From an uncultured Planctomycetales bacterium (GTDB taxonomy: Bacteria > Omnitrophota > Gorgyraeia > Zapsychrales > Fredricksoniimonadaceae): 64,000 nucleotides of DNA. Location of the stretch: assembly GCA_964520655.1 (NCBI GenBank), contig CAZFNI010000012.1, positions 1,917 to 65,916 on the forward strand. The letters are read 5' to 3'. A program made the position numbers and the translations under genes. Every line of letters begins with the position of its first letter. The first letter of the stretch is position 1. Below are positions 1 through 21,539 of this stretch, piece after piece. The notes under the pieces were generated by a model that was given only the letters and a program-made list of their open reading frames with translations, was not told where the DNA came from and did no database searches.

Positions 1-1397
1 GTCCCTATGCCTACATTATTGGGAACAACCATACCCCCAGGTGGGGCAGACAATGTTGCGTATTGCCCAACACTTATCCCTCCTAAAACCCCTAAAGCAC
101 TACCTGGAGAGATCGTCCCCACCCCTAAGTTTGAATTCTTTAGCATTGCACCTAACGGATGAAGGGTTGAAGTCTCATTAAAAATAATAACGGCATCAGT
201 AAGGCTGCCATTATTATTATTATCTCCCACAAGATTCACTGTGTTTCTTGCCCCCAGCAGCAAGTTTCCTGTTACAGGACTGTTGATATATTCGGCAGGA
301 TCATTAAAATAAATCGAATTCAGATCACGCACATATATATTTCCATTAACATCCATCTGTGCAGCCGGTGCCCAGGTCCCGATCCCCACATTGCCATTGG
401 TGACCACCAACCCGCCTTGCGGCGTCGTTGTCCCAATACCAACCTTATCCGACCCAGTCGTGTTATAAACCGTACCAGTACCCGTCGACCAACCAGAGGC
501 CGCCGATGACGATATTGTCCCTGGGGCCATCCATGTCCCGATACCAGTTGAGCCAGAAACCAACACATACCCCGCTGATGGATTTGAGGATAACTGCAAG
601 CCTGTCGTGCGCGTCGTCCCCTGCACATCCAAAGCCGTACCAGGTGCCATCGACCCGATCCCCACATTACCCTCTACGATCAGCCCGCCAGCAGGCGAGG
701 TGCTTTGTATAAACGATGAATTATAATTAGTCCCAATTCCAACGCCACCCCCGGCAACAACAAACATACTTAATGGATTTAATGTGCCGATGCCTACATT
801 CCCGCTGGTTATAATACCTCCCGTCGGAGATGTGCTTGTAGCGAAGGCACCAAAACTCCCTCCGCCCAATACTGATAAAACACTATTTGGATTTGATGTT
901 CCAACACCAACATTACCGTTAAGATCAATTCTCATTTTCTCAGTGGGGACAACATCAGAATTACTTGTACGCGTTGAAAATATTAAAAGCCCCTGATAGC
1001 CTCCGCCTGTAGCCTCACCACCCCCTATCCATGAATGAGGATACGAATAAGTACCCGTTGTTCCATTAAACCCCATATAAACAAATCCCTGTGTCCCACC
1101 CGGATTACCTGCGGCAGTATTTAAACGAATAACTTCTGAACTATTTGCGCCAATAGCAATATTTAATGGTCTATTGGCAACCCAAGTACCTATCCCAACG
1201 TTCCCAGTAAGAACAACCAACCCACCCTGCGGAGTCGTTGTCCCAATACCGATATTACCCGTAGCCCCTTCCACATGGAAATAGTTCCGGGCATTGTTCT
1301 TGATATTAAAATCTTTCGCGGCAAAAGCAGACATAGGGAAAACCCCTGTCAGGCTTAAGAGCATCAAGATCCTTATGTAACAAAAGAATTTTGTCAT
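1..1397 (-). CDS. Giant secreted glycine-rich repeat protein, second paralog, N-terminal ~465 aa (gene runs off the window's left edge)
   Basis: The reverse complement of 1395-1397 is ATG. The translation is MTKFFCYIRILMLLSLTGVFPMSAFA|AKDFNIKNN...GNIGIGTTTPQGGLVV.TGNVGIGT... This has the same signal-peptidase site and the same GNVGIGT repeat modules as the 3066-12659 protein. The frame stays open to position 1. It is absent from the ORF track, presumably because no stop codon falls inside the window. Confidence 0.6.
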   Translation of the reverse strand, partial: MTKFFCYIRILMLLSLTGVFPMSAFAAKDFNIKNNARNYFHVEGATGNIGIGTTTPQGGLVVLTGNVGIGTWVANRPLNIAIGANSSEVIRLNTAAGNPGGTQGFVYMGFNGTTGTYSYPHSWIGGGEATGGGYQGLLIFSTRTSNSDVVPTEKMRIDLNGNVGVGTSNPNSVLSVLGGGSFGAFATSTSPTGGIITSGNVGIGTLNPLSMFVVAGGGVGIGTNYNSSFIQSTSPAGGLIVEGNVGIGSMAPGTALDVQGTTRTTGLQLSSNPSAGYVLVSGSTGIGTWMAPGTISSSAASGWSTGTGTVYNTTGSDKVGIGTTTPQGGLVVTNGNVGIGTWAPAAQMDVNGNIYVRDLNSIYFNDPAEYINSPVTGNLLLGARNTVNLVGDNNNNGSLTDAVIIFNETSTLHPLGAMLKNSNLGVGTISPGSALGVLGGISVGQYATLSAPPGGMVVPNNVGIG

Positions 1398-1425
1398 TTC
1401 AGTTATCATTTACTAGAACTAACCA

Positions 1426-3081
1426 TCAATTCGCCCTTAAAATGATCAAGGGCTTGCTTGCCTCGTGACTGCGATTGGCTTTCAGTTTTAAAAAATACTG
1501 CAAATTATATTGGGCGGTCGTGTCGAAAGGATCGGCGCTGACCGACCGTTTAAAATATTCTTCTGCAGCAGACCAGTCATTTAATTTCAAACAAACAGCC
1601 GCCAGAGTATTTAATGCGTTTTTGGATCTAGGCTCAATGCGGACCGCTTTGGATAAATAAAGCCTGGCCAGCGTCAAATGCCCCTGGAATAACGCGATCG
1701 AGCCCAAATTGGTGTAAATGACATGGTCCCCATATTGGCCAGTGAGCGCAAGTCCGTACTGCTGCGAAGCATCATCAAACTGTCCTTTAACAAAATAGCC
1801 CCGGGCCAAATACTTATGAACTGTCTTGAGCAACGGGCTCTGTTCCTGCCAGTACGAGGCATATTTCATTTCATCATGCCACAGCTCGTTATAGCGCCAC
1901 GAGATCACTACCCATCCGGAGATCAAGACCACGACCATCACCAGTGACACATTGGCAAAAACACGACGAGCAGGCATGACGATCACATCCGCGAGGATCA
2001 TAAAAAATCCGATCGATGTCCACATCAGCCACTGGGGTGCAAACAGCAGCGCCTGACCGTTGAACAATCCGCCAATAGCCATCAATATCATCCCCAGAAA
2101 AAACCAGGAAAATCCTGCCAATATCCAGACTCTATGGCGAAAAAATCTCCAAAGCACCCAGAACATCACACCCCAGACAGCACAGCCTCCCAAAACCCAG
2201 ACCGCTGTCAGATCCCTAACAACAGGTTTCAGTGTCACCGCGACGATACCATCAGGGACAAAGAATCGGGACACATACCAGACCTGCATCGAAAAACAGG
2301 ACGCGGCATATTCCCACAAGCTCATATGGTAGCCATCGAACTTGGCAAAAATATTTCCGTACAGGCTGGCCCATTTCAATCTCAGCAGGAAATACGCAAA
2401 CGCCGTGATCCACAGAATTCTCTGCTCACGCCAGATCTGAGCAGCTTCTTTTTGCTGAACGAACAGCGACAACAAGGCCAGGGCCGGTGGGAATATAAAC
2501 GCATTCTCATGACAGAATAAAGCTCCCAGATAACACAAAAACACAAAGAATCTTTCCCTAAACGATGTCTTTCTAAAACACAGCACATGGGCACAAAACA
2601 GCAGCAATAGTAATTGCAGCGCGAATATCCCGGCAGATTTGTAATTGACGATAATACCGTTTAACGGATGAACCAGAACGAAAACAGGAACAAGTGTTGA
2701 GAACACAACATTTTTGGATAAGTGCAAAAGCAATGACCGTAGCGCCAGACACGCCGCGATGAACATCAACAGATAAAAAACATGGATGATGACAACATTG
2801 CCATTGCTGATGATATTGATCAACCGGGGAACGATCAAGGCCAGCGGCCGGTAATGATCATCTGTTTGCGGCCCTTCCAAATGCAAAACTTTTGCCTTAT
2901 CAGGAACAAGGTTCAACCATAAATTCCTGGGGTCGCGTGACGCGGCATCAGAGAATGTGTGGTCATCGAGCATGACAGGATGATTGAGCGCGTTAAAGAA
3001 TGTCAGCAGCCCCAACAGCAAGAACAAAATAAAAGCATTTCGTTGAAGTGACAGAAATTTGGCCATCATATCACCCACCAT
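1426..3081 (-). CDS. Polytopic membrane glycosyltransferase (PMT/ArnT-like GT-C fold, GT39/GT83-type) with C-terminal TPR repeats
   Basis: 551 aa. The N-terminus has a 'HPVMLDDHTF' acidic loop motif after TM1 and about 11 hydrophobic helices. The last ~150 aa are TPR-like (ARLYLSKAVRIEP..., AEEYFKRSVSADP...). The start overlaps the stop of the giant gene by 16 nt. Confidence 0.5.
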   Translation of the reverse strand: MVGDMMAKFLSLQRNAFILFLLLGLLTFFNALNHPVMLDDHTFSDAASRDPRNLWLNLVPDKAKVLHLEGPQTDDHYRPLALIVPRLINIISNGNVVIIHVFYLLMFIAACLALRSLLLHLSKNVVFSTLVPVFVLVHPLNGIIVNYKSAGIFALQLLLLLFCAHVLCFRKTSFRERFFVFLCYLGALFCHENAFIFPPALALLSLFVQQKEAAQIWREQRILWITAFAYFLLRLKWASLYGNIFAKFDGYHMSLWEYAASCFSMQVWYVSRFFVPDGIVAVTLKPVVRDLTAVWVLGGCAVWGVMFWVLWRFFRHRVWILAGFSWFFLGMILMAIGGLFNGQALLFAPQWLMWTSIGFFMILADVIVMPARRVFANVSLVMVVVLISGWVVISWRYNELWHDEMKYASYWQEQSPLLKTVHKYLARGYFVKGQFDDASQQYGLALTGQYGDHVIYTNLGSIALFQGHLTLARLYLSKAVRIEPRSKNALNTLAAVCLKLNDWSAAEEYFKRSVSADPFDTTAQYNLQYFLKLKANRSHEASKPLIILRAN

Positions 3082-6000
3082 TGTGTACCGTCGCAGACAA
3101 CGGTAAAAGACTGGTACTGAGTTGTTGTTGAGATCGTTGCGCTTCCATCAACCGTTTCCGCGGCGTTGCCGTCTAAGATCACCGCGTTGGCCGATGAGTC
3201 CGTTTTCTTGATATTATAAAGACGACCAGAAACCGTGCTTGCGGCCGGCAAAGTGATCGTGACCGCACCGCCCGAGGCGTCCACCAATATCACATAATCA
3301 TTGACAGTGGCGGTGTAATTCGCGGTCTTGCTGACAACCGCGACCCCCATTGAACCTTTGAGCTGTAACGAGGATTGGGCCGTCCACGTGCCGATACCGA
3401 CATTTCCTCCATAAAGGATGAACTTGTCCTGCGGCGTTGTCGTTCCAATACCGACATTGCCTTCCACCATCATGCCCCCTGTCGGAGCAGCCGAGATAAC
3501 GTAGGCGGAATTCTTCCCTGTGCCGATACCAACCCCTCCTGATACAGAGAGCCTGCTAGACGCCGTGACTGTTCCTATACCCACATTGCCCCCAATTGGA
3601 TTGATCAGAATATTACCTTTTGAAGCATCACTGGTTGAATCGAGCGTCAAATTGCCAGCCGCGTTATATGTTCCATACAACGTATTAAACATAGCCCGGC
3701 CAAGATAATCAACACTGCCTAAAAAGGAACCTGATGCCGTCCAGATACTCAGCACATTCTGCGTGCTTCCCGACGCCGCAACGATACTCACCGCCGATTT
3801 GGCAGTTGTCGTCGGTTTGATCGTAAAATACGATGGCATGGAACCAAATGCAGAAAGAATTGATGGTGAGCTCCCAAAAACCGTTTCCCCAACAACACTA
3901 AAGGGAACTTCATTCGTTAACCACGTTCCGATCCCTACATTTTCTCCCATGACAACCAGCCTGCCCTGCGGTATCGTCGTGCCAATACCGACATTACCTG
4001 CTGCAGTTACATTAACTAAAACATTCCCTGAAGAATCTTGTGCTTGTATCAAGTCCGCAGTTTGTGCCGCTGCTCCCCGAGATATCAACCCCACAACATT
4101 TGATGCTGTCGGGATCAAAGCAACTTGAGCAATATCCGTATAAAAATTACGGGCAAAATTCAAATGCCCTGTAGAGAGCTGGACCCAGTCATATCTACTG
4201 TCTGTTGAATTAAAGACAGCAAAGGCACCAGCTCCTGGAGCGGCAGATGAACCAGTTGATATAAAACTATACGTCTTGCCTGAGGATGCGGCTGCATTCA
4301 ACGAAACTCCTGCGCCTACAGTTGTTGATAGCCCATTTGCTTTCACATACAGAGGGCCAAGAGCGGCGTTTGTCGTATCCCCAACAACCACCATAGGAAA
4401 TTCTGGCGCGTAGCTTCCAACCCCCACGTTACCCTGAATGATCATGCCATTCCCTGGAGTGGTGTAATAGCCGGCATATAAAGTCCCGACCCCGACTCCA
4501 CCTTGAACATCTAGTTTATTCTTGGATAGCGTAGTCCCCAGACCAACATTACCCGAAGCTGTCACATTACTATTAACAATCCCATCAAAAGAACCGCCGT
4601 TATTGTATTGCAATTGCGATGATGAACCTCCCGGTGTTCCTCCCCCTGATGTTGACAACGTGCTTGCCGCCATCCAGGTACCGATACCCGTTGAACCCGA
4701 CACCAGCACATAACCCGATCCAGGATTACTGCGCACACGTAGTGTATTTGTATCAACGCCCGCCGCAGCCGTCCATGTCCCGACACCAAGATTACCCTTG
4801 CTGACAACTAAAGCGTCCTGCGGGGTTGTTGTACCAATGCCCACATTGCCGTTATCAAAAATGGATGAATTCCCAACCGTTGTCGATGATGCAGCCTTTT
4901 GCAAATAATTTGTTGTCATAGAAGTGTAAGACGGATATGTACTCGTATCGACGGAGAGAGTCCCATCGCCAGACCCAGTCTTGACAAAACCGTTGGACGT
5001 CAAATTTGTTATCTTAGGTGCATTGATCCCTGTCGTAAACTTACCGGTACCCACCACATCCAGACTCTGTGCCGGGTTTACGCTTCCAATACCGACATTC
5101 GTTGTAAAATAGGTATCGCTTGTTCCATACACATCAAGTAAAGCCTGCGGTGCCCAGGTGCCGATCCCCACATTCCCATTCGTGACAACAAATCCCCCCT
5201 GCGGCGTCGTTGTACCGATACCGACCTTGTCTGAACCCGTCGTGTTATAAACCGTTCCCGTCCCCGTCGACCAGCCGGAGGCCGCCCCACCCGTCGCCAG
5301 CGTTGACGCCGCCATCCATGTCCCGATACCTGTCGAGGACGAAACCAAGACACTCCCCGCCGCTGCATTGTTGCCGATCAACCGCAAGCCGGTTGTTTCC
5401 AAAGACGCGTTCGCCGCTGTCCAGGTGCCGATGCCGACATTTCCTCCAACAACGATAAACTTATCCTGAGGCGTGTGTGTTCCAATGCCCACATTACCTT
5501 CAATGATCATCCCCCCGGCAGGTGGTGATGTTGTTAGGAATCTATCGCCATTCTTTACTGTACCAACACCAACATTGCCCACGATCGACAATACAGCCTG
5601 CGGGGATGATGTTCCCAAAGCTACATTGCCGCCACCCACATACAATGCCGATTCTGACGACATCGTAAAAGTATTGATGCCAATATTACCTGTCAGCAGA
5701 AAATTGGTTTTATTGGCAGTGCTCCAGGCAAACGTTGGGGGGACTGATCCTGTAGTCGCACCGATCTGAAGCGTTGAATCCGAATTAGATGTTGCCGGAC
5801 CAATACCCCATGCGGCAGTCGATACCCAATTACCGATCATCTGTGGAAATCCCCCACTGCCTGGTCCGCCATAAGTACCGAAATACAGTTGATCAGGGGC
5901 GCCTGATACTGATCGGTTTGCCCGACCAACCTGTAAAGCAACCCCTGGTTTCCAGGTACCGATCCCAACAAATCCATTCATGACCGTCAGTCCAGCGTTG

Positions 6001-9000
6001 CTCGTCAGCACTGTACCGATCCCCACCCCTCCATTGGCGTCAACGATAAATGGCGCGCTGGTCGGACTCCCTACTTGGAAAACCCCTGCCGGAGCCCATG
6101 TCCCTATCCCCACATTCCCATTAGTCACAACCAACCCACCTTGAGGCGTTATTGTTCCAATACCCACATTATCGGATCCCGTCGTGTTATAAACCGTCCC
6201 AGTACCCGTCGACCAGCCTGAAGCCGCAGCCCCAGTTGCCAGGGTGGACGCCGCCATCCATGTACCGATACCTGTCGAGGACGAAACCAGAACACTCCCC
6301 GCCGATGCATTGTTGCCAATCAAACGTAATCCGGTTGTTTCAAGTGAAGCACTATCTGCCGTCCATGTCCCTATACCGACATTCCCGCCGGTCACGGACA
6401 ATCTAGCCTGCGGTGTTATCGTCCCAACACCCAAATTACCGCTGCCGTCAATAACAACATCAGAATTAGAAGTGGAGTTTGACCGTGAGAAATACAATTT
6501 CCCAGCCCCCACCGAGTTTGACGCGGTTGATGCCCCCATGTACCAGGTGTTAGACCCTGTTGCTCCCAGCTGAATGCTGATCATACTGCTTGGATTTAGG
6601 ATATTTAACCCTGTGCCGTCTCCACCCGAAGCTATGATGCGCTGGGTGCCGTTAACATCCAATGTTGTTCCCGGAGCATAGGAACCGATCCCCACATTAC
6701 CTTGAACGATCATCCCACCGCTTGGCGCGGCAGTCGTCAAATAAGGTGAATTGATCCCCGTCCCAACACCGACATTCCCCACAATAGCCATCTTATTTTT
6801 CGGCACAACCGTACCTACCCCCACATTACCATTAGCATCAAAAACAACTTTGTCTGTCAACGAGCCACTGGATGCTGTTGAAAAAACAAGATTGGTGGAG
6901 TTGGCCGCTGTGTATGTGGTTCTTAATGTCGTTAATGGGCTATAATTTTGCCCTAACGCGCCAGCAAAAACGAAACTAATCCCCTGCGAATCACCAACGG
7001 TTGATCTGGACGTGATCATGGATATCGCTGTGCCGTTGGCCGCATCATTCTGGATCTCAACAGTTCTAGCTGATGGCGATGTTCCCGTTGATGTTGTCCA
7101 AAATGCCGCTGCTACGGGTTCACCGCCCACAGCATTAGCCGTAGTAGTATTCTTGAACAACGCCATAGTGTAGGGAACTGCCGACGTCCCAACGCCCACA
7201 TTACCCCCAGAAGTAATAAGCAGTGGCGATGAATCGTTAGGACCACTGTCATTGATGCGCAGCAATTCTTGCGCGCCGTCACCAACAACCTCCAGTTTTG
7301 AATGCGTCGTCCCAGTACCAATACCAACATTCCCCAAACGAACACTCAACGCATTATCCGGCGCCCACGTGCCGATACCCACATTCCCGTTAGTGACGAC
7401 CAATCCGCCTTGCGGCGTTATTGTTCCAATACCAATATTATCTGACCCTGTCGTGTTATAGACTGTCCCGGTTCCTGTCGACCATCCGCTGGCCGCCCCA
7501 GAAGTTGCCAACGTCGATGCCGCCATCCATGTCCCGATACCCGTCGATGACGACACAAGAACACTCCCCGCCGCTGCCCCGTTACCGATCAATCGCAGGC
7601 CGGTTGTTTCCAAAGAGGCATTCGCCGCCGTCCATGTGCCGATCCCGACATTGCCCCCCAAAACAGCGAGCTGTGCCTGCGGTGTCGTTGTCCCTAAGCC
7701 CACATTGCCCTGGACGATCATCCCTCCGCTTGGGGCTGCACTGGTTACAAATGAAGAATTTATTCCAGTGCCAATGCCAACGCCTCCAACAGTAGACAAT
7801 TTATTAAATGGTGTGAATGTCCCAACACCCAAATTACCTGATTCATCGATCGTGATTTTTGCTGCATCCGAAACACCGATCATCACACCAAATACCCGAT
7901 TCACGATACCCCGGCCAAAAACAAAACCATAATGACCATTACTTGCAGCTGGAACACTGTTGCCTATACCGATCGCAACACCATTATCATTGTTTATTGT
8001 ATTGCTAGAACCAATAGCGATCGCTCCGGAAGAAGCATTTGTGTTATTGCTATAACCAAAAACCATGGACTGCCAACCGTTAGTATTTGAATACCCAAGA
8101 CTGATCCCATTGGAACCAGAACCGATGTTTACCCCGCCGGTTGATTGCTCCCCTGTGATTGCGATCGTACTGCTTTTAACTTCCAATGTCGCAATGGGAG
8201 CCCACGTTCCAATCCCCACATTCCCATTCATCACCACAAGCCCGCCCTCTGGAGTAGTTGTTCCAACACCCACCTTATCACTACCCGTTGTGTTATAGAC
8301 TATCCCTGTACCCGTCGACCAACCGGACGCCGCACCGGATGTCGCCAGCGTAGATGCTGCCATCCATGTCCCAATACCAGTCGATGATGACACAAGCACG
8401 CTTCCTGCCGCGGCACCGTTGCCGATCAGCCGCAAGCCGGTTGTTTCCAAAGAAGTATTAGCTGCGGTCCACGTACCAATACCCACATTACCCCCGACAA
8501 CGATCAACTTATCTTGCGGCGTATGTGTTCCAATTCCCACATTACCTTCAATGATCATTCCACCTGCTGGAGGTGATGTTGTCAGGAATCGATCCCCATT
8601 CTTAACAGTGCCTACACCAACATTGCCAACGATCGACAATACAGCCTGCGGCGATGTCGTTCCGATCGCTAGATTCCCTGAGGCTATATACAATGCCGAT
8701 TCTTTTGACATCGCAAAAGTATTGATCCCAATATTACCCGTCAACATTAAATTCGTAGGATAAGTATTAGACCATGTAAATGGAGCAGAAACGGGTGTGG
8801 ACGTACCTCCAATTCTTAACGTAAAATCAGTATTAATCGCTGATGCAGGCCCGATCCCCCATGCTCCAGAACTCATCCAATTCCCAACCATCTGAGGATA
8901 ACCGGCTGTGTTACTATATGAAGCAAACCATAACTGGTCCGGAGATCCGCTAACAATTTGATTATATTTACCAAACTGCATCGCTACATCAGGCTTCCAT

Positions 9001-12000
9001 GTCCCGATACCGACTCTCCCATTTAATATAGTGATCGCAGCGCTCTGCGTATTGACCGTACCAATCCCAATATTACCTTGATTATCTACAACAAAACCCA
9101 GGCCATTACCAACGGAATTAACTTGAAATGCCGCCTGCGGCGCCCATGTTCCGATACCCACATTCCCGTTAGTGACAACCAATCCACCTTGAGGCGTTGT
9201 TGTCCCGATGCCGACATTATCAGAACCCGTAGTGTTGTAAACCGTTCCCGTTCCCGTCGACCAGCCCGAGGCTGCTCCGGATGTCGCCAACGTAGATGCT
9301 GCCATCCATGTCCCGATACCCGTCGATGATGACACTAGCACACTCCCCGCCGCCGCTCCGTTGCCGATCAAACGCAGACCAGTTGTTTCAAGAGACGCAT
9401 TATCTGCTGTCCATGTACCGATCCCTACATTCCCTCCGATCACAGAGAATTTTGCTTGAGGCGTTACTGTGCCAATACCAATATTGCTGCGGTAACTCCC
9501 TGAAGAATTAACCCCCAGGATAACATCACCATCCTGACCACTCCCATTTTTTGCCCCGCCAGTAATATAGACATTCCCCCCGCTGTAATTCGCATTATCG
9601 CCAGGACCACCTGATAAATTCAAATAACCGCCGGGAAGACCTGAAGCACCATAAACACTTCCTGGAACGATATTAATAAAATTACCACCGCTGTATTCTC
9701 CTGCGATCGTTATCGTGGGCCTGGGTTCCGCTCCCCCTGTGGTCCCCCCTTTAAGATTGATCGACCCGCCAGAAGATCCTCCAGTCGTCATATCAATGGT
9801 GGCACCATTATTCGACCCTGACCCGGAATTGCCCGTTGTGATCGCAACCCCTCCCCCAAAGCCTGTTGTCCCATTCTGACCATTCAACGTGATGGAACCG
9901 CCGCTGGCCTGGCTGTTCGCAACACTTCCTCCAGCGGTTAATGTTACCGAACCACCAACACCTGTTCCCGTTGAGGTGCCTCCAGTAAACGAAAGAGAAC
10001 CGCCATTGGTGTTGTTGGCTGTCGGTGTCCCACCTTTCATTTGAATTGATGTACTGTTACTGGATGGTGGAGCATTTACAGCAAAATAAGCCGCAGGGAA
10101 TATACTTCCTATCCCAACATTACCGATCGGCGCCACCACAAAAGCTCCATTAGGCGCCCAGGTGCCTATCCCAACATTCCCATTGGTCACAACTAATCCG
10201 CCTTGCGGTGTCGTTGTCCCGATCCCAATATTATCCGATCCCGTCGTGTTATATACCGTGCCCGTGCCCGTCGACCAACCTGACGCCGCTCCTGATGTCG
10301 CCAGCGTTGACGCAGCCATCCAGGTCCCAATACCCGTTGAACCAGAGACCAAAACACTCCCTGCCGCAGCCCCGTTGCCGATCAACCGCAGACCAGTTGT
10401 TTCAAGAGACGCATTATCTGCTGTCCATGTGCCGATCCCGACATTGCCACCAATAACCGACAGCTTAGATTGAGGCGTCATTGTGCCGATACCCAAATTG
10501 CCCATGCCATCAATCCTCATAAGTTGAGTTGTTACACCGCCTGACTTCTTAGAAAAAGTTGTATTATTCCCTGAAAATATAATCATTTCACCAGAATCAA
10601 TACCAAAACCATACCTATCGCCCCCAACGCCGCCATCGTAAAGATATATTTTATCTAACCCTCCAATTTGAGCAAAGGTAAGCGGTGCTGTTGGTGATGC
10701 ATTTCCAATACCTACATATCCAGTTGTTGTGTCCACTACTAAAGAGTTGATGCCTACTTGTAAAGTTTTATTTGGTGCCCACGTCCCGATCCCAACATTT
10801 CCATTGGTCACAACCAACCCGCCCTGCGAAGTTGACGTCCCAATACCAACATTATCCGTCCCCGTCGTTGTATATACTGTCCCCGTCCCCGAAGTCCACG
10901 GCCCTGACGCCGCCGGCAATGTCCCCGCCGCCATCCAGGTCCCAATACCCGTTGACGACGAAACCAAAACACTCCCTGCCGCAGCCCCGTTGCCGATCAA
11001 CCGCAGGCCAGTCGTTTCCAATGAAGCGTTATCCGCCGTCCATGTACCAATACCGACGTTCCCGCTAGTAACCATAAACGCTCCTTGCGGTGTCGTTGTC
11101 CCAATCCCCACATTACTTCCTCTGCTGGCTGGAATACCCACAATCGCGACATCATATTGCCCGCTCCACATATTTTGAAAATATGTTGATGCTGCCAGAA
11201 TATCAAGTCCATTATTCGAACTTTGAGCGCCATTAGTTGACCAAATAAATCCTCTTGATGCATTAGCACCTAAAGTTAATCTCCCATCCCAGGATCCCGC
11301 CGTGTTCGTGATCGATAAATTCCCCTCAGCTATATCAACTTTAGCAACGGGCTTCCATGTACCAATACCCACATTGCCATTCATCACAACCAACCCGCCC
11401 ACAGGCGTTGTTGTGCCGACACCAACGTTACCATTGCCATTTATCATAAATAGTGTCTTGTAACTGCTAGGGTTTCCTGCTGTGGTTGGTCCCCTGATCA
11501 AACTATATGCATCGTTTTGAACGTCAATTCTCGATGCCCATTCTGGATAACCAGCTTCATCAACCCATCCAGATTCATTGCCGTTAACTCGTATATCAAG
11601 ATAGCGAGCGCCAGCTCCAGCACTCGTGATAAAACGCGAAGAAGGCCCAGACGATGAATAAAATTTCAACGGACTAACTTGACCGCCATTGCCGATGTTA
11701 ACGCCAACAGCATATGAAGCAACACCCAGATCTAATGTGTATGCTGGCACTGTCGTTCCAATGCCGATCAAACCACTGGTAAGCACGTTAAACTTTCGAT
11801 TAACGTCAAATAAACTTACAGGCGCCCACGTCCCAATCCCCACATTCCCATTAGTCACTACTAACCCACCCTGTGGCGTCGTTGTCCCGATACCGATATT
11901 ATCCGACCCCGTCGCCGTATACACCGTCCCCGTACCAGAAGACCATGGTCCAGCCGCCGCCGGCAATGTCCCGGCAGCCATCCACGTCCCGATACCAGTC

Positions 12001-12659
12001 GAAGACGAAACAAGCACGTTCCCCGCCGCCGCACCATTGCCGATCAAACGCAGGCCCGTTGTTTCCAATGATGCCGTAGCTGCCGTCAACGTCCCTATCC
12101 CAACATTGCCTCCCATAACTGCTAAACGCGCTTGGGGTGTTTTTGTACCGATACCAACATTCCCGTCCCCTAAAATACGCATTTTAGAAAGCCAATTGTT
12201 CGTCGTAAAATCTATGTAGGCACTTGAGCTGGCCAAAGTAAATGCCAGATTATTAGTCGATAATGCCGCAGCAAAAGAAGTGTTATTTGTAAGATCATTA
12301 AAAGCCCCTCCAACAAAAGAACCGAATTCAAAAGCTCCTGAACCCGTAGCGTTGATCTGCATCTTTGACCCAGCACCGATCGTATCTGGTATAAACTGAA
12401 TATTCCCCGCAGAACTCACAATTGATAATGGATTTGTTGGTGCCCAGGTACCGATCCCCACATTCCCATTAGTCACCACCAACCTGCCCTGAGGCGTCGT
12501 TGTCCCGATCCCGATATTACCGGTCGCCCCGTCGACATGAAAATAGTTCTGGGTATTGTTTTTAATATTAAAATCTTTGGCAGCAAATGCAAAAGAAGGG
12601 AAAAGCGCGGCTAATAGAATTATTGTAAGAGACTTTAAATAATCTTTTATATATCTCAT
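3066..12659 (-). CDS. Giant secreted glycine-rich beta-helix/tail-fiber-like repeat protein (3197 aa)
   Basis: A 9.6-kb uninterrupted ORF. The N-terminal signal peptide is MRYIKDYLKSLTIILLAALFPSFAFA|AK. There are about 60 'GNVGIGT(W/T)xP' heptads and about 9 near-identical ~95-aa modules of the form GNVGIGTWTADNASLETTGLRLIGNGAAAGSVLVSSSTGIGTWMAASTLATSGAASGWSTGTGTVYNTTGSDNIGIGTTTPQGGLVVTNGNVGIGTWAP. The centre is G/S/T/N-rich low-complexity sequence. A distinct C-terminal ~90-aa domain ends ...YTATVNDYVILVDASGGAVTITLPAASTVSGRLYNIKKTDSSANAVILDGNAAETVDGSATISTTTQYQSFTVVCDGTQWWVI. Confidence 0.85.
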   Translation of the reverse strand: MRYIKDYLKSLTIILLAALFPSFAFAAKDFNIKNNTQNYFHVDGATGNIGIGTTTPQGRLVVTNGNVGIGTWAPTNPLSIVSSAGNIQFIPDTIGAGSKMQINATGSGAFEFGSFVGGAFNDLTNNTSFAAALSTNNLAFTLASSSAYIDFTTNNWLSKMRILGDGNVGIGTKTPQARLAVMGGNVGIGTLTAATASLETTGLRLIGNGAAAGNVLVSSSTGIGTWMAAGTLPAAAGPWSSGTGTVYTATGSDNIGIGTTTPQGGLVVTNGNVGIGTWAPVSLFDVNRKFNVLTSGLIGIGTTVPAYTLDLGVASYAVGVNIGNGGQVSPLKFYSSSGPSSRFITSAGAGARYLDIRVNGNESGWVDEAGYPEWASRIDVQNDAYSLIRGPTTAGNPSSYKTLFMINGNGNVGVGTTTPVGGLVVMNGNVGIGTWKPVAKVDIAEGNLSITNTAGSWDGRLTLGANASRGFIWSTNGAQSSNNGLDILAASTYFQNMWSGQYDVAIVGIPASRGSNVGIGTTTPQGAFMVTSGNVGIGTWTADNASLETTGLRLIGNGAAAGSVLVSSSTGIGTWMAAGTLPAASGPWTSGTGTVYTTTGTDNVGIGTSTSQGGLVVTNGNVGIGTWAPNKTLQVGINSLVVDTTTGYVGIGNASPTAPLTFAQIGGLDKIYLYDGGVGGDRYGFGIDSGEMIIFSGNNTTFSKKSGGVTTQLMRIDGMGNLGIGTMTPQSKLSVIGGNVGIGTWTADNASLETTGLRLIGNGAAAGSVLVSGSTGIGTWMAASTLATSGAASGWSTGTGTVYNTTGSDNIGIGTTTPQGGLVVTNGNVGIGTWAPNGAFVVAPIGNVGIGSIFPAAYFAVNAPPSSNSTSIQMKGGTPTANNTNGGSLSFTGGTSTGTGVGGSVTLTAGGSVANSQASGGSITLNGQNGTTGFGGGVAITTGNSGSGSNNGATIDMTTGGSSGGSINLKGGTTGGAEPRPTITIAGEYSGGNFINIVPGSVYGASGLPGGYLNLSGGPGDNANYSGGNVYITGGAKNGSGQDGDVILGVNSSGSYRSNIGIGTVTPQAKFSVIGGNVGIGTWTADNASLETTGLRLIGNGAAAGSVLVSSSTGIGTWMAASTLATSGAASGWSTGTGTVYNTTGSDNVGIGTTTPQGGLVVTNGNVGIGTWAPQAAFQVNSVGNGLGFVVDNQGNIGIGTVNTQSAAITILNGRVGIGTWKPDVAMQFGKYNQIVSGSPDQLWFASYSNTAGYPQMVGNWMSSGAWGIGPASAINTDFTLRIGGTSTPVSAPFTWSNTYPTNLMLTGNIGINTFAMSKESALYIASGNLAIGTTSPQAVLSIVGNVGVGTVKNGDRFLTTSPPAGGMIIEGNVGIGTHTPQDKLIVVGGNVGIGTWTAANTSLETTGLRLIGNGAAAGSVLVSSSTGIGTWMAASTLATSGAASGWSTGTGIVYNTTGSDKVGVGTTTPEGGLVVMNGNVGIGTWAPIATLEVKSSTIAITGEQSTGGVNIGSGSNGISLGYSNTNGWQSMVFGYSNNTNASSGAIAIGSSNTINNDNGVAIGIGNSVPAASNGHYGFVFGRGIVNRVFGVMIGVSDAAKITIDESGNLGVGTFTPFNKLSTVGGVGIGTGINSSFVTSAAPSGGMIVQGNVGLGTTTPQAQLAVLGGNVGIGTWTAANASLETTGLRLIGNGAAAGSVLVSSSTGIGTWMAASTLATSGAASGWSTGTGTVYNTTGSDNIGIGTITPQGGLVVTNGNVGIGTWAPDNALSVRLGNVGIGTGTTHSKLEVVGDGAQELLRINDSGPNDSSPLLITSGGNVGVGTSAVPYTMALFKNTTTANAVGGEPVAAAFWTTSTGTSPSARTVEIQNDAANGTAISMITSRSTVGDSQGISFVFAGALGQNYSPLTTLRTTYTAANSTNLVFSTASSGSLTDKVVFDANGNVGVGTVVPKNKMAIVGNVGVGTGINSPYLTTAAPSGGMIVQGNVGIGSYAPGTTLDVNGTQRIIASGGDGTGLNILNPSSMISIQLGATGSNTWYMGASTASNSVGAGKLYFSRSNSTSNSDVVIDGSGNLGVGTITPQARLSVTGGNVGIGTWTADSASLETTGLRLIGNNASAGSVLVSSSTGIGTWMAASTLATGAAASGWSTGTGTVYNTTGSDNVGIGTITPQGGLVVTNGNVGIGTWAPAGVFQVGSPTSAPFIVDANGGVGIGTVLTSNAGLTVMNGFVGIGTWKPGVALQVGRANRSVSGAPDQLYFGTYGGPGSGGFPQMIGNWVSTAAWGIGPATSNSDSTLQIGATTGSVPPTFAWSTANKTNFLLTGNIGINTFTMSSESALYVGGGNVALGTSSPQAVLSIVGNVGVGTVKNGDRFLTTSPPAGGMIIEGNVGIGTHTPQDKFIVVGGNVGIGTWTAANASLETTGLRLIGNNAAAGSVLVSSSTGIGTWMAASTLATGGAASGWSTGTGTVYNTTGSDKVGIGTTTPQGGFVVTNGNVGIGTWAPQALLDVYGTSDTYFTTNVGIGSVNPAQSLDVVGTGKFTTGINAPKITNLTSNGFVKTGSGDGTLSVDTSTYPSYTSMTTNYLQKAASSTTVGNSSIFDNGNVGIGTTTPQDALVVSKGNLGVGTWTAAAGVDTNTLRVRSNPGSGYVLVSGSTGIGTWMAASTLSTSGGGTPGGSSSQLQYNNGGSFDGIVNSNVTASGNVGLGTTLSKNKLDVQGGVGVGTLYAGYYTTPGNGMIIQGNVGVGSYAPEFPMVVVGDTTNAALGPLYVKANGLSTTVGAGVSLNAAASSGKTYSFISTGSSAAPGAGAFAVFNSTDSRYDWVQLSTGHLNFARNFYTDIAQVALIPTASNVVGLISRGAAAQTADLIQAQDSSGNVLVNVTAAGNVGIGTTIPQGRLVVMGENVGIGTWLTNEVPFSVVGETVFGSSPSILSAFGSMPSYFTIKPTTTAKSAVSIVAASGSTQNVLSIWTASGSFLGSVDYLGRAMFNTLYGTYNAAGNLTLDSTSDASKGNILINPIGGNVGIGTVTASSRLSVSGGVGIGTGKNSAYVISAAPTGGMMVEGNVGIGTTTPQDKFILYGGNVGIGTWTAQSSLQLKGSMGVAVVSKTANYTATVNDYVILVDASGGAVTITLPAASTVSGRLYNIKKTDSSANAVILDGNAAETVDGSATISTTTQYQSFTVVCDGTQWWVI

Positions 12660-12757
12660 TAGATTATATAGAGATGCGCGTAGTTATAGCTTCTAAATAC
12701 AAAATTATTTTATATTATTAAGATATAGCAACAAGAAAAGAATGGAATATTTTTCGG
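12660..12757 (-). promoter_or_regulatory. AT-rich spacer, probable promoter/5' UTR of the giant repeat-protein gene
   Basis: This is the only intergenic gap (98 nt, strongly AT-rich) between yraN and the giant ORF. No specific -10/-35 elements could be assigned with confidence. Confidence 0.3.
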
Positions 12758-13144
12758 TTATATCCAATTGCAGATAAAAGCGTTCTTCAAATGTCTAATG
12801 TCAGGTCCGGAGCCTGAATGAAGAATAGAAACCACATCAAAAAGGCAAGCAATGCAGGTTGTTTGAAAACATCGTTTAAGGTAAAATTCAGCTAATTTGA
12901 TCAATTTCCGTTGTTTAAAATAATGCACGGCTTCAAACGGCTGGCCACAGGCAATTGAGGCGCGGGTTTTAACTTCGACAAACACAAGCGTCTGATCATC
13001 ACGAGCAATAATGTCGATCTCCCCCATACGGCAGCGGAAATTCCGCTCAACGATCTGGTAACCCAGCTTCGTCAAATATTGACAGGCCGCATCTTCACCG
13101 GATCTTCCAAGATTTTTTCGCGTCATAAGCCCAAAGTTGACCAA
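12758..13144 (-). CDS. yraN: YraN-family (UPF0102) predicted endonuclease
   Basis: 128 aa. GEDAACQYLTKLGYQIVERNFRCRMGEIDIIARDDQTLVFVEVKTR is the characteristic YraN/UPF0102 core. Confidence 0.75.
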   Translation of the reverse strand: MVNFGLMTRKNLGRSGEDAACQYLTKLGYQIVERNFRCRMGEIDIIARDDQTLVFVEVKTRASIACGQPFEAVHYFKQRKLIKLAEFYLKRCFQTTCIACLFDVVSILHSGSGPDIRHLKNAFICNWI

Positions 13145-14253
13145 AGCCCCGCTTGCTCACGGTTTTGCTCAACCATTTTCCTTTGTTCAGCATGCGCGCT
13201 ATCAGTAATATCACCCAACGTTTTCCCATATTCAGCTGTTGCACCAGCCTTTTCAAAGAAAGATTTCCTCTCACCTTCCAAAAAATTAATCCCTTTTGTA
13301 ATGATATTTTTGTAGCTGTTAGCAATATTCGGATGATCACGGTAGCGACCAAGCCAATCGATCGCCTCATTATACTGATCCATCGTCCAATACACTGAAA
13401 GACCCGACACAATATCTTCAATATGGTTCCTTAATTTTTTCTCATCAAAAGACAACAACAACAAAACTTCCGCCTCAGTAAATGGCTTTGCGGGTAACGA
13501 CAATGCATTAAGCAACTCACCATCTACCATATGCTTGGTCTTAAGCTCATCAATGGCTTGTTCAAGCATCGTCCTAGCCTCCTGCCGATGATCTTTCAAC
13601 ACTCGCCCGATCCTTTTAGCTGGGCCGCTCATCATCAATCCCGTTTTGGTGATCTTCCAGACCGGCAGGATCGCCAAGATCCTCTCTTTACGTTCCCCCC
13701 TGAGATTAAACGCGTCAAATAAATTCCCGAACAGATTATCCCCGTCGGAATATTGAAGATACTGGAACGCGCTGCCGCCCTGGCAGCTATCAAGAAGACC
13801 CGCCAGATCATTGCGGAATTCATGCCGGACAAAATATTTATCTCGCAAACAATCGAAAACTGACTGTTTACGCAATGCATTCAGATCCTGACGGTCATTT
13901 GATTCCAGATCCCCTAACCGCTTTTGGTCCATTGCGTACCTTAAATAGGCGATCGTCTGAAAATACTTATACACATCTGCCTCTGCCGGCGCAGCATACG
14001 ACCACAATAGTAACGGTGCATCGCCAATGCGCCTGCGTACGCTCCTGCGGCTTAATTGTTCGATCGACATCTCTATCTGCGCATCTCTATTCAACGTTGC
14101 TGAAAGCATCGGATGGATACCTTTTTCAGAATAGCGGTAAGGAGTTTTATAGGCTGTCATGAAACCCCCGTCGTCCTTATCCACTGCAAAAATATCCGTC
14201 CAGCCATTGATCGGCGCGATCAACATCAATATCCAGACTAAAATCCTCATCAA
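13123..14253 (-). CDS. Secreted hypothetical protein, last gene of the T4SS/T4P operon (possible Tra accessory protein)
   Basis: 376 aa. The N-terminal signal peptide is MMRILVWILMLIAPINGWT. No motif was recognised. It overlaps the upstream gene by 4 nt (ATGA). Confidence 0.5.
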   Translation of the reverse strand: MMRILVWILMLIAPINGWTDIFAVDKDDGGFMTAYKTPYRYSEKGIHPMLSATLNRDAQIEMSIEQLSRRSVRRRIGDAPLLLWSYAAPAEADVYKYFQTIAYLRYAMDQKRLGDLESNDRQDLNALRKQSVFDCLRDKYFVRHEFRNDLAGLLDSCQGGSAFQYLQYSDGDNLFGNLFDAFNLRGERKERILAILPVWKITKTGLMMSGPAKRIGRVLKDHRQEARTMLEQAIDELKTKHMVDGELLNALSLPAKPFTEAEVLLLLSFDEKKLRNHIEDIVSGLSVYWTMDQYNEAIDWLGRYRDHPNIANSYKNIITKGINFLEGERKSFFEKAGATAEYGKTLGDITDSAHAEQRKMVEQNREQAGLWSTLGL

Positions 14254-14696
14254 TTCCTCATTAATTGTCCCATGAGCACTTCCTGGGCCTTGATGATCTG
14301 CTCAGTTTTTTTCTCTTGCCATCTTAAATATTCCCTGGCGTTTTCCTGATTTGGCACATTCAAAAGATTCAGCACAGGCTGCGGCGGCTGATAATAAGTT
14401 ATCTTCCCGTTAGCATCAACCATCGGCTCCCGCCAATCGATCAAAGCTTTATCAGCCAAAAGATCAGACTTTTCTTTTTTCTCAAAATACTCCAAATGTT
14501 GTAAATGATAATAATCATTAGCGGAGGCTTTGTAAGGATGAACGATCAATATTACTATAAAGATGAGGGAACAGCAGTTTTGCAACATTGTATGAACCTC
14601 CAGAAGATCCAGGAGAATTCTTCCTCCTTGTTGCTCCGCTCGCCAACGGCATTCTTTGCCACCCAAAACCGGGGATCCTGACCCAACGGCATGCAT
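14250..14696 (-). CDS. Small secreted hypothetical protein (likely true start near 14588)
   Basis: An internal Met begins a signal-peptide-like segment, MLQNCCSLIFIVILIVHPYKASA. The upstream 5' extension overlaps the TraU-like gene out of frame. The mature part is about 90 aa with no recognised motif. Confidence 0.35.
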   Translation of the reverse strand: MHAVGSGSPVLGGKECRWRAEQQGGRILLDLLEVHTMLQNCCSLIFIVILIVHPYKASANDYYHLQHLEYFEKKEKSDLLADKALIDWREPMVDANGKITYYQPPQPVLNLLNVPNQENAREYLRWQEKKTEQIIKAQEVLMGQLMRN

Positions 14697-15310
14697 TTCT
14701 GTTGATCAGGCTCAACCATCTGGATCTTATCCTGCCAGCGGTTAATGGAAAAAAGGATCGGAGCTTGTGAAATATGCCCGCTCATAAGACCTCCGGCGCT
14801 GATACCTCTTAACGCGATCAATGCTGACGATGCCGCAGGACTGTAATGGCTGACAAATCCTGTTCGAGGATACACAGGCCCCCAATTGCCCACAAATTCA
14901 CGAGCAGTTGTCGTCTCTTGACGCCATTGACGGCTGTCCATCTCAGACCTATATCTCAGCCCCACAGCTGTATTCGTCAATGAGCCACATAAGACCATTT
15001 GTTCAATTTGTTTTAATGGAAAATCATACACATGTGCATCATGAAACCGCAGATTACTGCCGCTTAAAGCATTCAAGCTTGCCTTACGAGCGATCGTATG
15101 GATCACCAATGATGGTTCATAATACGAGATCCAAACTCCCGGAATATCCCCCACCATACAGGCCCCATGACTTTTAAGCTGCCAGCAACTTTGGTCAACA
15201 CGCTCAACCGCGTGCACCAGATTGATCCCGTCCCCCTTTATCTCATCCGCAGAATATGCAAGCACATGTGCGGCTAATATAAACCCTATCAGGATAATTA
15301 TCTTTTTCAT
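14555..15310 (-). CDS. traU: TraU-like F-type T4SS periplasmic protein (shortened relative to F-plasmid TraU)
   Basis: 251 aa with a signal peptide. Remembered F-plasmid TraU motifs are present in order: SCWQL (F: ICWSC), GVWISYYEPSLV (F: GLAIGYWEPMAL), HDAHVYDFPL (F: HVHWYKYPL), MVLCGSL (F: TSLGCLEGG) and YRSEMDSRQW (F: YLSEIDPTW). About 70 aa of the F protein are missing. Confidence 0.5.
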   Translation of the reverse strand: MKKIIILIGFILAAHVLAYSADEIKGDGINLVHAVERVDQSCWQLKSHGACMVGDIPGVWISYYEPSLVIHTIARKASLNALSGSNLRFHDAHVYDFPLKQIEQMVLCGSLTNTAVGLRYRSEMDSRQWRQETTTAREFVGNWGPVYPRTGFVSHYSPAASSALIALRGISAGGLMSGHISQAPILFSINRWQDKIQMVEPDQQKCMPLGQDPRFWVAKNAVGERSNKEEEFSWIFWRFIQCCKTAVPSSL

Positions 15311-16170
15311 AACTTCATAATGAAAGCTAATGCGTAAAACGGAGGCACATGACTATCAGGAATGATCGGATGCGTATGCGACTGATTGCCCCCCGTATCT
15401 GAAGTCAATGAACTGATCTGACCTGTCATGACTGGAGAACTGTGACCATCATATCGGCTCCCCAGCCAGGGCGTTTCATTATACGCATGATGGTGGGCTG
15501 GCATCTCCGCGATAGTCAACGCATGTGGCCCTGTTTCACTGCCATGATCGTGAGAAATACTACCGCCGCTTTTTTCTAATTTCCCCTGAAGATTGGTTTT
15601 ACTGACCCCACCCTCATCTTGCCGCGAGCCAACGATAAATTTATCGCGAAGATCCGGTGTACCATTCTGCCCATCACACAAAACCCAACCTAAAGGAATG
15701 CTGGCGATCGACCCAGACCACGCCACGATCACACCGGAAGCAATTTCATCTTGATCATTAGCCCCGGTAACACTACTCACAACATCTCCCGCGAATGACG
15801 CTTGCAGCAAACGCGAATTAATCATTGGCACTAAATTTAACGGCACTTGAACACTGACACTCATTTTTTTCTCATCAAACATCACTTGGTAGGGATGCCC
15901 CCAGGGGTTAAGTAAAGACCACAGCGGACTTAAGTAACCATCTATTTGCATCTGTTTTAAATCCGTTGGCCATTCATGATGATCCCTGTGATACTTTCTG
16001 CCAGCTGCCTGGATAACCCCCACCTCGGCAATTGTTTTCTCACCGGCACGGATCTCGACAGCGCGGACCATCACCGGCAATACCGCCGTTGTCAACAAAG
16101 CAACAATGCCCATGACGATCGCCAACTCAACTAACGAAAAACCATTTTTTCCTAGAATGTCGCGGTCCAT
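15307..16170 (-). CDS. Type IV prepilin-like protein, large (minor pilin or PilV-like tip-adhesin candidate)
   Basis: 287 aa. The N-terminus MDRDILGKNG|FSLVELAIVMGIVALLTTAVLPV is a class III signal peptide with Gly-1, Phe+1 and Glu+5. A large C-terminal globular region follows. Confidence 0.6.
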   Translation of the reverse strand: MDRDILGKNGFSLVELAIVMGIVALLTTAVLPVMVRAVEIRAGEKTIAEVGVIQAAGRKYHRDHHEWPTDLKQMQIDGYLSPLWSLLNPWGHPYQVMFDEKKMSVSVQVPLNLVPMINSRLLQASFAGDVVSSVTGANDQDEIASGVIVAWSGSIASIPLGWVLCDGQNGTPDLRDKFIVGSRQDEGGVSKTNLQGKLEKSGGSISHDHGSETGPHALTIAEMPAHHHAYNETPWLGSRYDGHSSPVMTGQISSLTSDTGGNQSHTHPIIPDSHVPPFYALAFIMKL

Positions 16171-16601: not shown

Positions 16602-16618
16602 ACTATCCTCCTTGTGTT

Positions 16619-19419: not shown

Positions 19420-19420
19420 C

Positions 19421-21538: not shown

Positions 21539-21539
21539 T

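Follow-up and report, generated by a model that had tools for sequence, protein, structure and literature searches.

A 3197-residue secreted protein with a MAT-type fibre shaft, a phage-type tip domain and a coupled glycosyltransferase-like gene

A giant gene with a signal peptide and a conserved head

Near one end of a 64,000-nucleotide (nt) stretch of contig CAZFNI010000012.1 (assembly GCA_964520655.1, positions 1,917 to 65,916; hereafter the window) lies a gene for a giant, repetitive and apparently secreted protein that resembles a fibre, preceded by a secretion and pilus gene cluster and followed by a gene for a membrane protein and a second fibre gene. The giant gene occupies 3066..12659 on the minus strand; the list of open reading frames (ORFs) and the translation give an ATG start, 3197 codons without an internal stop and a TGA stop at 3066-3068, and a protein in an NCBI record (P0121, 3197 amino acids (aa)) is identical to its product. 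Glycine makes up 17.5% of the residues, threonine 12.6%, serine 10.4% and asparagine 7.6%. The original prediction, made from the sequence alone, called this ORF a secreted protein of 3197 aa, and its Sec-type signal peptide is indeed readable. The same prediction ranked it among the largest ORFs possible for a bacterium, which is wrong: its own relatives reach 3.7-4.9 thousand aa, and sizes of 39,678 to 147,155 aa have been reported for Omnitrophota proteins (10.1101/2023.11.21.568195; 10.64898/2026.06.07.730766).

Read by eye, the N-terminus, MRYIKDYLKSLTIILLAALFPSFAFA|AKDF, shows a charged n-region followed by a hydrophobic core and a signal-peptidase-I type AXA site, so that the putative signal peptide MRYIKDYLKSLTIILLAALFPSFAFA spans aa 1-26 (12582..12659, minus strand). 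By the same reading there is no lipobox, and the prepilin N-methylation motif is likewise absent from the fibre. The mature protein begins with a head, (A)KDFNIKNNTQNYFHVDGATGNIGIGTTTPQGRLVVTNGNVGIGTW (12435..12581, minus strand), that contains the first doublet of the capping-loop motif described below and is nearly identical in the second paralog. The A-x-A-(A)-KDFN junction is common to the giant, its paralogs and its relatives, and a KDFN[IV]KN[ND]TQ head follows the signal peptide in P0122, P0126, a 1213-aa protein of locus L002 and the fibre of locus L008. This conserved head may be an anchor or a recognition element. Upstream of the gene, an AT-rich spacer of 98 nt (12660..12757, minus strand) separates it from a UPF0102 gene and holds promoter-like hexamers, TTGCTA-16-AATAAT, at 12731-12704; the giant gene probably has its own promoter, and the counts of promoter-like and terminator sequences in the region are no higher than in shuffles, which makes the promoter evidence weak.

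Motifs and modules of the shaft

The most conspicuous feature of the protein is a short glycine-rich motif. Exact GNVGIGT occurs 27 times, against a mean of 0.01 in composition-preserving shuffles of the protein; the relaxed forms GN[VIL]G[IVL]G[TS], N[VIL]G[IVL]G[TS] and [VIL]G[IVL][GN][TS] occur 44, 54 and 67 times (0.03, 0.09 and 1.25 in shuffles), so that the earlier count of about 60 heptads holds for the relaxed motif. Twenty-nine of the motifs sit in doublets with a spacing of 17-19 aa and the pattern GNVGIGTTTPQGGLVVTNGNVGIGTW. Across the window the motif clusters on the minus strand between 0 and 12.7 kb only. The GNVGIGT-type motif of the giant matches the capping-loop consensus V-G-G/N-pi-x-x-P-x-x-x-L, which was defined on crystal structures of the mosaic adhesive trimer (MAT) fibres of Bdellovibrio (PMC10769870), and a relaxed version of this consensus finds 45 matches in the giant against 0.12 in shuffles.

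The motifs are embedded in larger repeats. Anchoring on TGIGTWMA located nine modules on the minus strand: eight conserved copies at 11790..12164 (copy 1, aa 166-290), 10743..11117 (copy 2, aa 515-639), 10128..10502 (copy 3, aa 720-844), 9114..9488 (copy 4, aa 1058-1182, the reference of alignment A2), 8172..8546 (copy 5, aa 1372-1496), 7335..7709 (copy 6, aa 1651-1775), 6066..6440 (copy 7, aa 2074-2198) and 5124..5498 (copy 8, aa 2388-2512), followed by a divergent ninth at 4482..4856 (aa 2602-2726), which aligns to the crystal structure of the Bd3182 fibre tip. Among the eight conserved modules, of ~110-125 aa, identity is 75-95% in protein but only 69-81% in DNA, and the ninth shares 41-46% identity with the others. 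The first description, of roughly nine modules of ~95 aa, is thus corrected in the count (eight plus one divergent), in the size and in the near-identity of the DNA. A larger super-module of ~370 aa is present twice (chunk-wise self-BLAST; 8160..9257, aa ~1135-1500, and 5130-6209, aa ~2151-2510, minus strand), the two copies being 56-96% identical along the block.

How old are these repeats? On an ungapped core of 92 codons, the mean proportion of synonymous differences between modules (pS) is 0.61, near saturation, and that of nonsynonymous differences (pN) is 0.089, with a dN/dS of about 0.08 (range 0.04-0.14). Because synonymous sites are near saturation and pN is low, the modules are old duplicates under purifying selection and not recent tandem expansions. 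Modules of the giant compared with those of P0122, its closest homolog, give pS of 0.39-0.72 and pN of 0.02-0.11, so that dN/dS is about 0.08 across genomes as well, and copy 8 is closest to the last module of P0122 (pS 0.39, pN 0.02). "Dissolved nucleotide tandems" have also been described for long Omnitrophota proteins in general (2026 preprint, 10.64898/2026.06.07.730766). The amino acid conservation of the modules, both along aa 166-2512 and in P0122 of locus L001, is extreme (pN 0.02-0.14, with synonymous sites near saturation), and packing within a shaft does not obviously explain by itself such conservation within one protein and between genomes.

The repeat statistics bear directly on whether the gene might be a prophage or tailocin tail-fibre gene, or else an assembly artefact or pseudogene produced by the collapse or expansion of repeats. 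Its motif and C-terminal tip domain are phage-like and the gene is highly repetitive; against this, the longest exact DNA repeat within it is only 44 nt, so that collapse of short reads is unlikely, and an independent Logan contig (L006, SRR26835473) matches window positions 285-3683 at 99.7% identity without gaps, confirming the 3' end of the giant gene and both junctions. The repeat mis-assembly that the original prediction had raised as a danger to its own reading is thus not borne out by repeats that are 69-81% identical at the DNA level, in a frame kept open over 9.6 kb under a dN/dS of about 0.08. The protein carries a signal peptide, the window contains no phage structural genes, and relatives sit in chromosomal contexts beside mreD/PBP2 or rpsB/tsf. 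We regard the prophage or artefact explanation as largely refuted.

One part of the protein departs from the modular pattern. A stretch rich in Gly, Ser, Thr and Asn (G/S/T/N), placed in the middle by the earlier reading, sits only ~30% along the protein (9525..10067, minus strand, aa ~865-1045); its core lacks the capping-loop motif and shows a GGS-x-x-L/F-type periodicity. Within aa 901-1000, where there are zero motifs, these four residues make up 63% of the sequence, and the stretch has few internal matches and no Pfam match. It may be a beta-solenoid spacer.

Relationship of the shaft to MAT fibres

Searched as a whole against Pfam and NCBIfam, the giant protein gave zero matches, even at E<=1. 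No recognisable lectin or enzyme domain was found in these databases, and at the same threshold no part of the protein matched pectate-lyase, Beta_helix, glycoside-hydrolase or peptidase families, or, in Pfam, Peptidase_S74 (PF13884), a C-terminal chaperone with an S-D-x-x-x-K catalytic motif. A YadA_anchor barrel gave no Pfam or NCBIfam match either, and the C-terminus is a soluble sandwich.

Other comparisons placed the shaft among fibres. Tail-fibre families of PHROG gave weak matches. A single-sequence search of the PDB (phmmer) returned only Bd3182(632-782) of Bdellovibrio bacteriovorus, chain 8ojn_C, at E 1.8e-4 over query aa 2597-2726. A profile built from alignment A2, which combines the nine giant modules with 26 modules from relatives, matched the five solved structures of Bdellovibrio MAT fibres and nothing else in the PDB: Bd2133 (E 1.3e-11), two constructs of Bd1334 (E 4e-4 and 3.9e-3), Bd2439 (E 1.5e-3) and Bd3182 (E 0.022). 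The tail-fibre-like build that had been read from the motif is supported by the PHROG matches, by MAT fibres as the sole sequence matches in the PDB and by the capping-loop consensus; the database check assigns the protein to no Pfam or NCBIfam family, and relates it by profile to the MAT fibres.

MATs of Bdellovibrio have been shown by experiment to be displayed on the cell surface and are intertwined, trimeric beta-helical fibres (Caulton et al. 2024, PMC10769870). Besides a signal peptide they have a conserved N-terminal domain, and their tips, which are S74 chaperone-proteases or other folds, can be exchanged. The MATs in Table S3 of that study come from several predators and measure 417-1915 aa; one of them is an Omnitrophica protein of 713 aa (PMC10769870). 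The mature Bd3182 fibre of ~760 residues measures ~550 A, and 370 residues of Bd2133 measure 142-150 A (PMC10769870). An AlphaFold2 model of the conserved module as a monomer was poor (pLDDT 64.6), a result that fits an obligate intertwined trimer, yet proves none.

A hidden Markov model of the module found near-full-length modules in 84 sequences, mostly related proteins of 1.8-4.9 thousand aa, with <=18 copies per protein. The taxa named for these relatives include Omnitrophota, Patescibacteria, Elusimicrobiota and Margulisbacteria; a scan of genome contigs returned only two distant relatives, in an Omnitrophota and a Planctomycetales metagenome-assembled genome. Relatives of the module, at 27-43% identity, were also found on 38 viral contigs, one of them a glycine-rich protein that matches tail-fibre PHROGs. 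An apparent "85%" match on a viral contig (L011) was set aside, since it covers only a short part of a glycine-rich protein of 703 aa that resembles tail fibres.

The C-terminal tip domain

The last ~93 residues (aa 3105-3197; 3069..3347, minus strand) are modelled with confidence by AlphaFold2 as an eight-stranded beta-sandwich (pLDDT 92.7). Of the two pieces for which a model had been proposed, then, the C-terminal domain gave a confident one and the single module a low-confidence one (64.6). Fold comparison, with figures from 11.8 to 6.9, placed an Acinetobacter phage tailspike depolymerase first (11.8), followed by the N-terminal part of CBA120 TSP4 (10.7 and 10.0), the proximal subunit of the Klebsiella phage KP1 long tail fibre (9.9), the KP1 baseplate protein Gp9 (8.5), a Pseudomonas phage capsid spike (8.2), CpaA (7.7) and StcE (6.9). 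Foldseek concurs and adds the T4 baseplate. Among the 394 matches in BFVD at E<=1e-3 are minor tail proteins, tail fibres and giant-virus collagen-repeat proteins, and sequence identity reaches 57%, to uncultured phage proteins. Against Pfam Phage_depo_C (PF25692) the giant tip scores 15.5 bits (E 0.024), below the gathering score of 25 bits; two relatives come closer, P0064 with 24.7 bits and P0071 with 24.3.

This tip domain turns out to be extremely common and mainly of a phage-fibre or tailspike type. With an exhaustive profile search, <=74,968 clusters pass E<=1e-3, of which <=37,678 also pass E<=1e-10; these counts are upper bounds because the 226-position profile also covers columns of the fibre motif. 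Most of the best 150 matches have the domain in 2-3 copies, and in 87 of the 150 the final copy lies at the C-terminus. In a set of 121 sequences related to the giant (including the query's own record and one duplicate, and drawn from a search that apparently returned only lengths of about 0.55-1.75 times the query), 23 carry the domain, each as a single copy, which lies at the extreme C-terminus in 21; other members of the set end in Peptidase_S74. Tips that are either a sandwich or S74 on related shafts indicate the same tip mosaicism as in MATs. An apparent restriction of the domain to short proteins proved to be an artefact of a length-bound search, the exhaustive search finding it in proteins of all sizes. 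The original description of the last ~90 aa as a small, discrete and recurring beta-sandwich is thus upheld, and the domain is far commoner than had been thought.

Does the sandwich make the giant an enzyme? In a tailspike-like arrangement, a beta-helix that degrades polysaccharides would be expected in the G/S/T/N-rich stretch or in another insert, and the tip would be a depolymerase sandwich; both the weak Phage_depo_C match and the beta-solenoid-like periodicity at aa 865-1045 point that way. The families expected of such an enzyme are those absent from the protein at E<=1, and the sandwich also occurs on many non-enzymatic fibres, giant-virus collagen-repeat proteins and baseplate proteins, leaving us to consider an enzymatic fibre very improbable.

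A coupled glycosyltransferase-like gene and a second fibre gene

Directly downstream, at 1426..3081 on the minus strand, lies a gene for a protein of 551 aa (547 aa with the start of the public record), whose start overlaps the stop of the giant gene, either as ATGA at 3066-3069 (public-record start) or by 16 nt (upstream ATG). The product has a multi-pass membrane domain with about ten hydrophobic segments and an invariant DD motif, followed by C-terminal tetratricopeptide (TPR) repeats, which are its only Pfam matches. Full-length homologs (E 1e-13 to 1e-9, 21-25% identity over ~90% of the length) are mostly named as Omnitrophota TPR proteins, and several have PF13231; five of six distant relatives match PMT_2, with a best E of 6.5e-9. 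A DD pair after the first helix and YRP and HP motifs are invariant among the relatives. Because of the PMT_2 relatives and these invariant motifs, we infer that the gene encodes a divergent PMT_2-type protein glycosyltransferase of the GT-C class.

The linkage of fibre and GT-C/TPR genes is recurrent, not universal. Arrays of GT-C/TPR paralogs, up to six or seven per locus, stand beside large glycine-rich secreted proteins at loci L007, L008 and L010 of related, probably Omnitrophota, genomes, and that of L008 is near a fibre gene with a KDFNVKNNTQ head. A 771-aa gene downstream of the P0122 homolog, at first a candidate for a further GT-C gene, encodes another fibre-like protein instead.

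At the very edge of the window a second fibre paralog begins at 1409 (or 1397) and runs off the window start (1..1409, minus strand), encoding at least 469 aa. Frame translations show the same signal peptide as in the giant, the same mature head (AKDFNIKNN.RNYFHVEGATGNIGIGT) and one or more of the conserved modules, and the independent contig L006 carries the same start. The paralog was missed by the ORF list, since it runs off the edge, and by the earlier reading of the window. A predicted small ORF ("orf115", 320-667, minus strand, 115 aa) is not a small fibre gene and lies out of frame inside this paralog; its tblastn matches to other fibre genes stem from alternative-frame translation of repeat DNA.

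The neighbouring secretion cluster and the wider context

Upstream of the giant gene, on the same strand, lies a cluster at 13123-30261 that combines a type IV secretion system (T4SS; TraU, TraC, TraV, TrbI, DUF3438, DUF2895, TraG_N) with interleaved genes of a type IVb pilus (T4P): two N-methyl pilins, T2SSF, T2SSE and a secretin. Its G+C content is 0.39-0.41 in the distal half (20-30 kb), compared with 0.45-0.52 elsewhere in the window. Since a relaxase, a coupling protein and an integrase were not recognised anywhere in the window, the cluster may be a remnant or a domesticated system. One of its genes encodes a PilV-like minor pilin of 287 aa (15307-16170, minus strand); this protein has an N-methylation motif, matches the phage tail Collar domain weakly (E 0.0012) and may be a pilus-tip adhesin.

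Is the giant a client of this machine? It had been suggested that the fibre could be the cargo or partner of the adjacent cluster, for instance as a pilus-tip adhesin, exported or displayed by it. The proximity of the two on one strand (cluster at 13.1-30.3 kb) favours the idea, as does the absence of any other evident export route across the outer membrane, and a conserved locus resembling a type II secretion system or T4P (gspD/E/F, rcpC, rotamase) has been described upstream of giant genes in Omnitrophota (10.1101/2023.11.21.568195). The cluster in the window is of the conjugation type, however, and differs from that gspD/E/F-rcpC locus; a housekeeping-type UPF0102/YraN gene and the AT-rich spacer intervene between it and the giant gene, its G+C content is lower, and the fibre has a Sec signal peptide in place of the N-methylation motif of prepilins. 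In a tblastn search of the 19 cluster proteins against ten chromosomal fibre or GT-C loci (a small sample, with flanks of <=10 kb), there was no match, so that the proposed co-occurrence came to 0/10 and the cargo idea is not supported. We consider a partnership of fibre and cluster improbable.

The fibre relatives P0122, P0126 and P0128 belong to arrays in which two to four fibre genes follow one another in tandem, beside rpsB/tsf, mreD/PBP2 or sigma-factor genes. In the P0126 locus (L002), small genes with a Laminin_G_3 domain (concanavalin-like lectin; 15721-16482 and 24627-25415 of that locus) follow the second and fourth fibre genes and may encode accessory lectins for the fibres. The L010 locus (Logan SRR14932504) is syntenic with window positions 54520-61545 (PPDK, tRNA-synthetase, an RsmE-like methyltransferase and a Fer4_20 oxidoreductase), and a GT-C/TPR array and a glycine-rich protein of >1752 aa directly adjoin the syntenic block, with the T4SS absent, which indicates that the fibre/GT-C locus moves independently of the secretion cluster.

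Elsewhere the window is ordinary diderm chromosome, with genes for LpxB, MetH, FeoB, PPDK, a tRNA synthetase and BatA-D/MoxR. The last of these form a complete BatA-D/VWA/DUF58/MoxR (AAA_3) operon of the aerotolerance type at 34838-41744 (minus strand). A single tRNA-Arg(CCT) lies at 50732-50808 (plus strand), about 20 kb from the T4SS block.

Discussion

The giant is best explained, with a probability of about 0.7, as a Sec-exported, presumably trimeric and surface-displayed fibre of the MAT kind, from a diderm host that most likely belongs to Omnitrophota. The original proposal of a cell-surface fibre or adhesin remains the best reading by homology, the MAT homologs being displayed on the cell surface by experiment; for the giant itself display and adhesion are probable by extension. 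We envisage that the signal peptide is cleaved at AFA|A and that three chains would intertwine into a beta-helical shaft, with GNVGIGTxxPxxxLxV capping loops closing each beta-helix segment and the eight conserved modules of ~110-125 aa alternating with variable knob or spacer segments. Scaled from published MAT dimensions, such a rod would be very roughly 0.13-0.23 micrometres long. Its conserved N-terminal head would remain at the cell surface, and the C-terminal sandwich would cap the distal end as a trimer-registering and/or target-binding tip, in place of the S74 chaperone-protease. The fibre may then contact other cells (host or prey) or surfaces, and the coupled PMT_2-like GT-C/TPR enzyme would probably O-glycosylate the Ser/Thr-rich fibre in the periplasm.

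Several observations weigh against this picture. For the giant, the trimer follows from homology and the monomer model of the module is poor; no outer-membrane export route or anchor is identifiable; and the taxon is assigned from relatives alone. Bdellovibrio MATs are defined by a conserved, beta-rich N-terminal domain of ~130 aa directly behind the signal peptide, whereas the likeness of the giant rests on shaft and tip, the MAT entries in the PDB being C-terminal constructs; the first capping loop of the giant is already at about residue 47, ~20 residues past the cleavage site, and its subfamily shares a head of another kind, KDFNIKNNTQ. Adhesion is proposed by analogy, and single MAT deletions in Bdellovibrio have small phenotypes. 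As to glycosylation, a Pfam search at E<=10 gave nothing significant for the membrane part of the downstream protein (best Mannosyl_trans4, E 0.068), the protein finds TPR matches only in a phmmer search of the PDB, a profile of its membrane domain finds none there, and GT-C neighbours are absent beside the closest fibre relatives in L001 and L002.

Could the fibre instead be a structural part of the envelope? As an S-layer-like coat, sheath or spacer fibre it would have no specific adhesive target, and its modules would serve self-assembly only. Several tandem paralogs per genome and many copies of one invariant module would suit such a bulk role, the giant has no recognisable lectin or enzyme domain, and T4 gp10-like baseplate proteins and CBA120 TSP4-N use the fold of its tip for docking, with a role that is architectural only. 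The closest solved relatives, on the other hand, are adhesive fibres, the tips vary between family members in a way that fits target recognition better than a uniform coat, and the length and rod-like build are typical of adhesins that reach out from the cell. We therefore consider a purely structural role unlikely, and favour a MAT-type surface fibre.

A bolder version of that fibre would make it an O-glycosylated filament of ~0.2 micrometres for host or prey capture by an Omnitrophota episymbiont or predator, its eight modules, almost invariant in spite of saturated synonymous divergence, being more than shaft, namely regularly spaced docking or glycosylation sites serviced by the GT-C/TPR enzyme, with export perhaps via the T4SS/T4P cluster. 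We offer this as a speculation that is unlikely in its entirety. If true, bacteria would have their own counterpart to the TMTC-type O-mannosylation of beta-rich adhesion domains that occur as repeats.

Much of the framework is already published: the MAT family, its motif, the swapping of its tips and a member from Omnitrophica, and the tip fold is known from phages. New are the size of the giant, 1.7 times that of the longest listed MAT, and its layout of near-invariant modules, as well as the occurrence of this tip on a giant fibre of a cell, the conserved KDFNIKNN head and the coupled PMT_2-like gene. Current understanding is not overturned by these findings. MAT-type fibres are so far the sole structurally understood cell-surface devices by which predatory bacteria recognise prey, and Omnitrophota are uncultured, ultra-small and thought to be attached to, or to prey on, other cells; a member of 3197 aa, accompanied by a dedicated glycosyltransferase-like neighbour, a conserved head and an exchangeable, phage-like tip, offers something concrete with which to study how these cells get to their partners and keep hold of them. 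The analysis also gives a fold and a size to a beta-sandwich that had gone unnamed, with tens of thousands of clusters across phages, giant viruses and bacteria, and the modules are a clear case of intragenic repeats that are kept by purifying selection and not by recent duplication.

Comparison with known systems

In its tip, the giant has a strong fold likeness to the C-terminal sandwich of phage depolymerases (PF25692), with a sequence match below threshold. In proteins of the T4 gp10 type and in the XD part of CBA120 TSP4 the same fold is a docking platform near the N-terminus, whereas in the giant it would be a distal, C-terminal cap. Phage fibres with an S74 domain (PF13884), such as the L-shaped fibre pb1 of T5 and the K1F endosialidase, share the capping loop and the logic of a triple beta-helix (PMC10769870), and some relatives of the giant end in PF13884; the giant differs in lacking S74, in having a secretion signal and in lying on a chromosome with no phage genes nearby. 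Trimeric autotransporter adhesins (YadA/Hia) are likewise long, modular, repetitive surface fibres of diderms, and some relatives of the giant carry weak PF05658 (YadA head repeat) annotations. The giant itself, by contrast, is without a C-terminal anchor barrel and without YadA, Hia and HIM domains, and it probably points the other way, its C-terminus forming the tip.

The downstream protein resembles O-mannosyltransferases of the PMT/TMTC-type GT-C class with TPR repeats, in which a membrane domain with an acidic DD after the first helix also precedes C-terminal TPR repeats; the PMT_2 and PMT scores come from distant relatives, the membrane domain of the window protein itself scoring none. 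With the giants described from Omnitrophota (Archaeovorins, Dockerin-type; West-Roberts et al. 2023, 10.1101/2023.11.21.568195; 2026 preprint) the protein probably shares its phylum, and they too are long secreted repeat proteins proposed to attach to prey or hosts, with repeats that are old at the nucleotide level and a secretion-type locus upstream. Those giants have >=7,000 aa, and the 3197-aa fibre is far smaller, has another type of repeat and a conjugation-type upstream cluster, and is without enzyme, dockerin, C39 and SecA-like domains.

The closest comparison is with the MAT fibres themselves (PDB 8OND, 8OML, 8OL4 and 8OJN), the only significant profile matches of the giant in the PDB. 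Both have a signal peptide, a shaft with capping loops, interchangeable C-terminal tips and several paralogs per genome. The giant differs from them in its length (3197 aa against 417-1915 aa), in the eight nearly invariant modules interleaved with variable inserts, in a tip that is a gp10/TSP4-N/Phage_depo_C-like sandwich unlike the solved MAT tips, and in the translationally coupled PMT_2-like GT-C/TPR gene that follows it.

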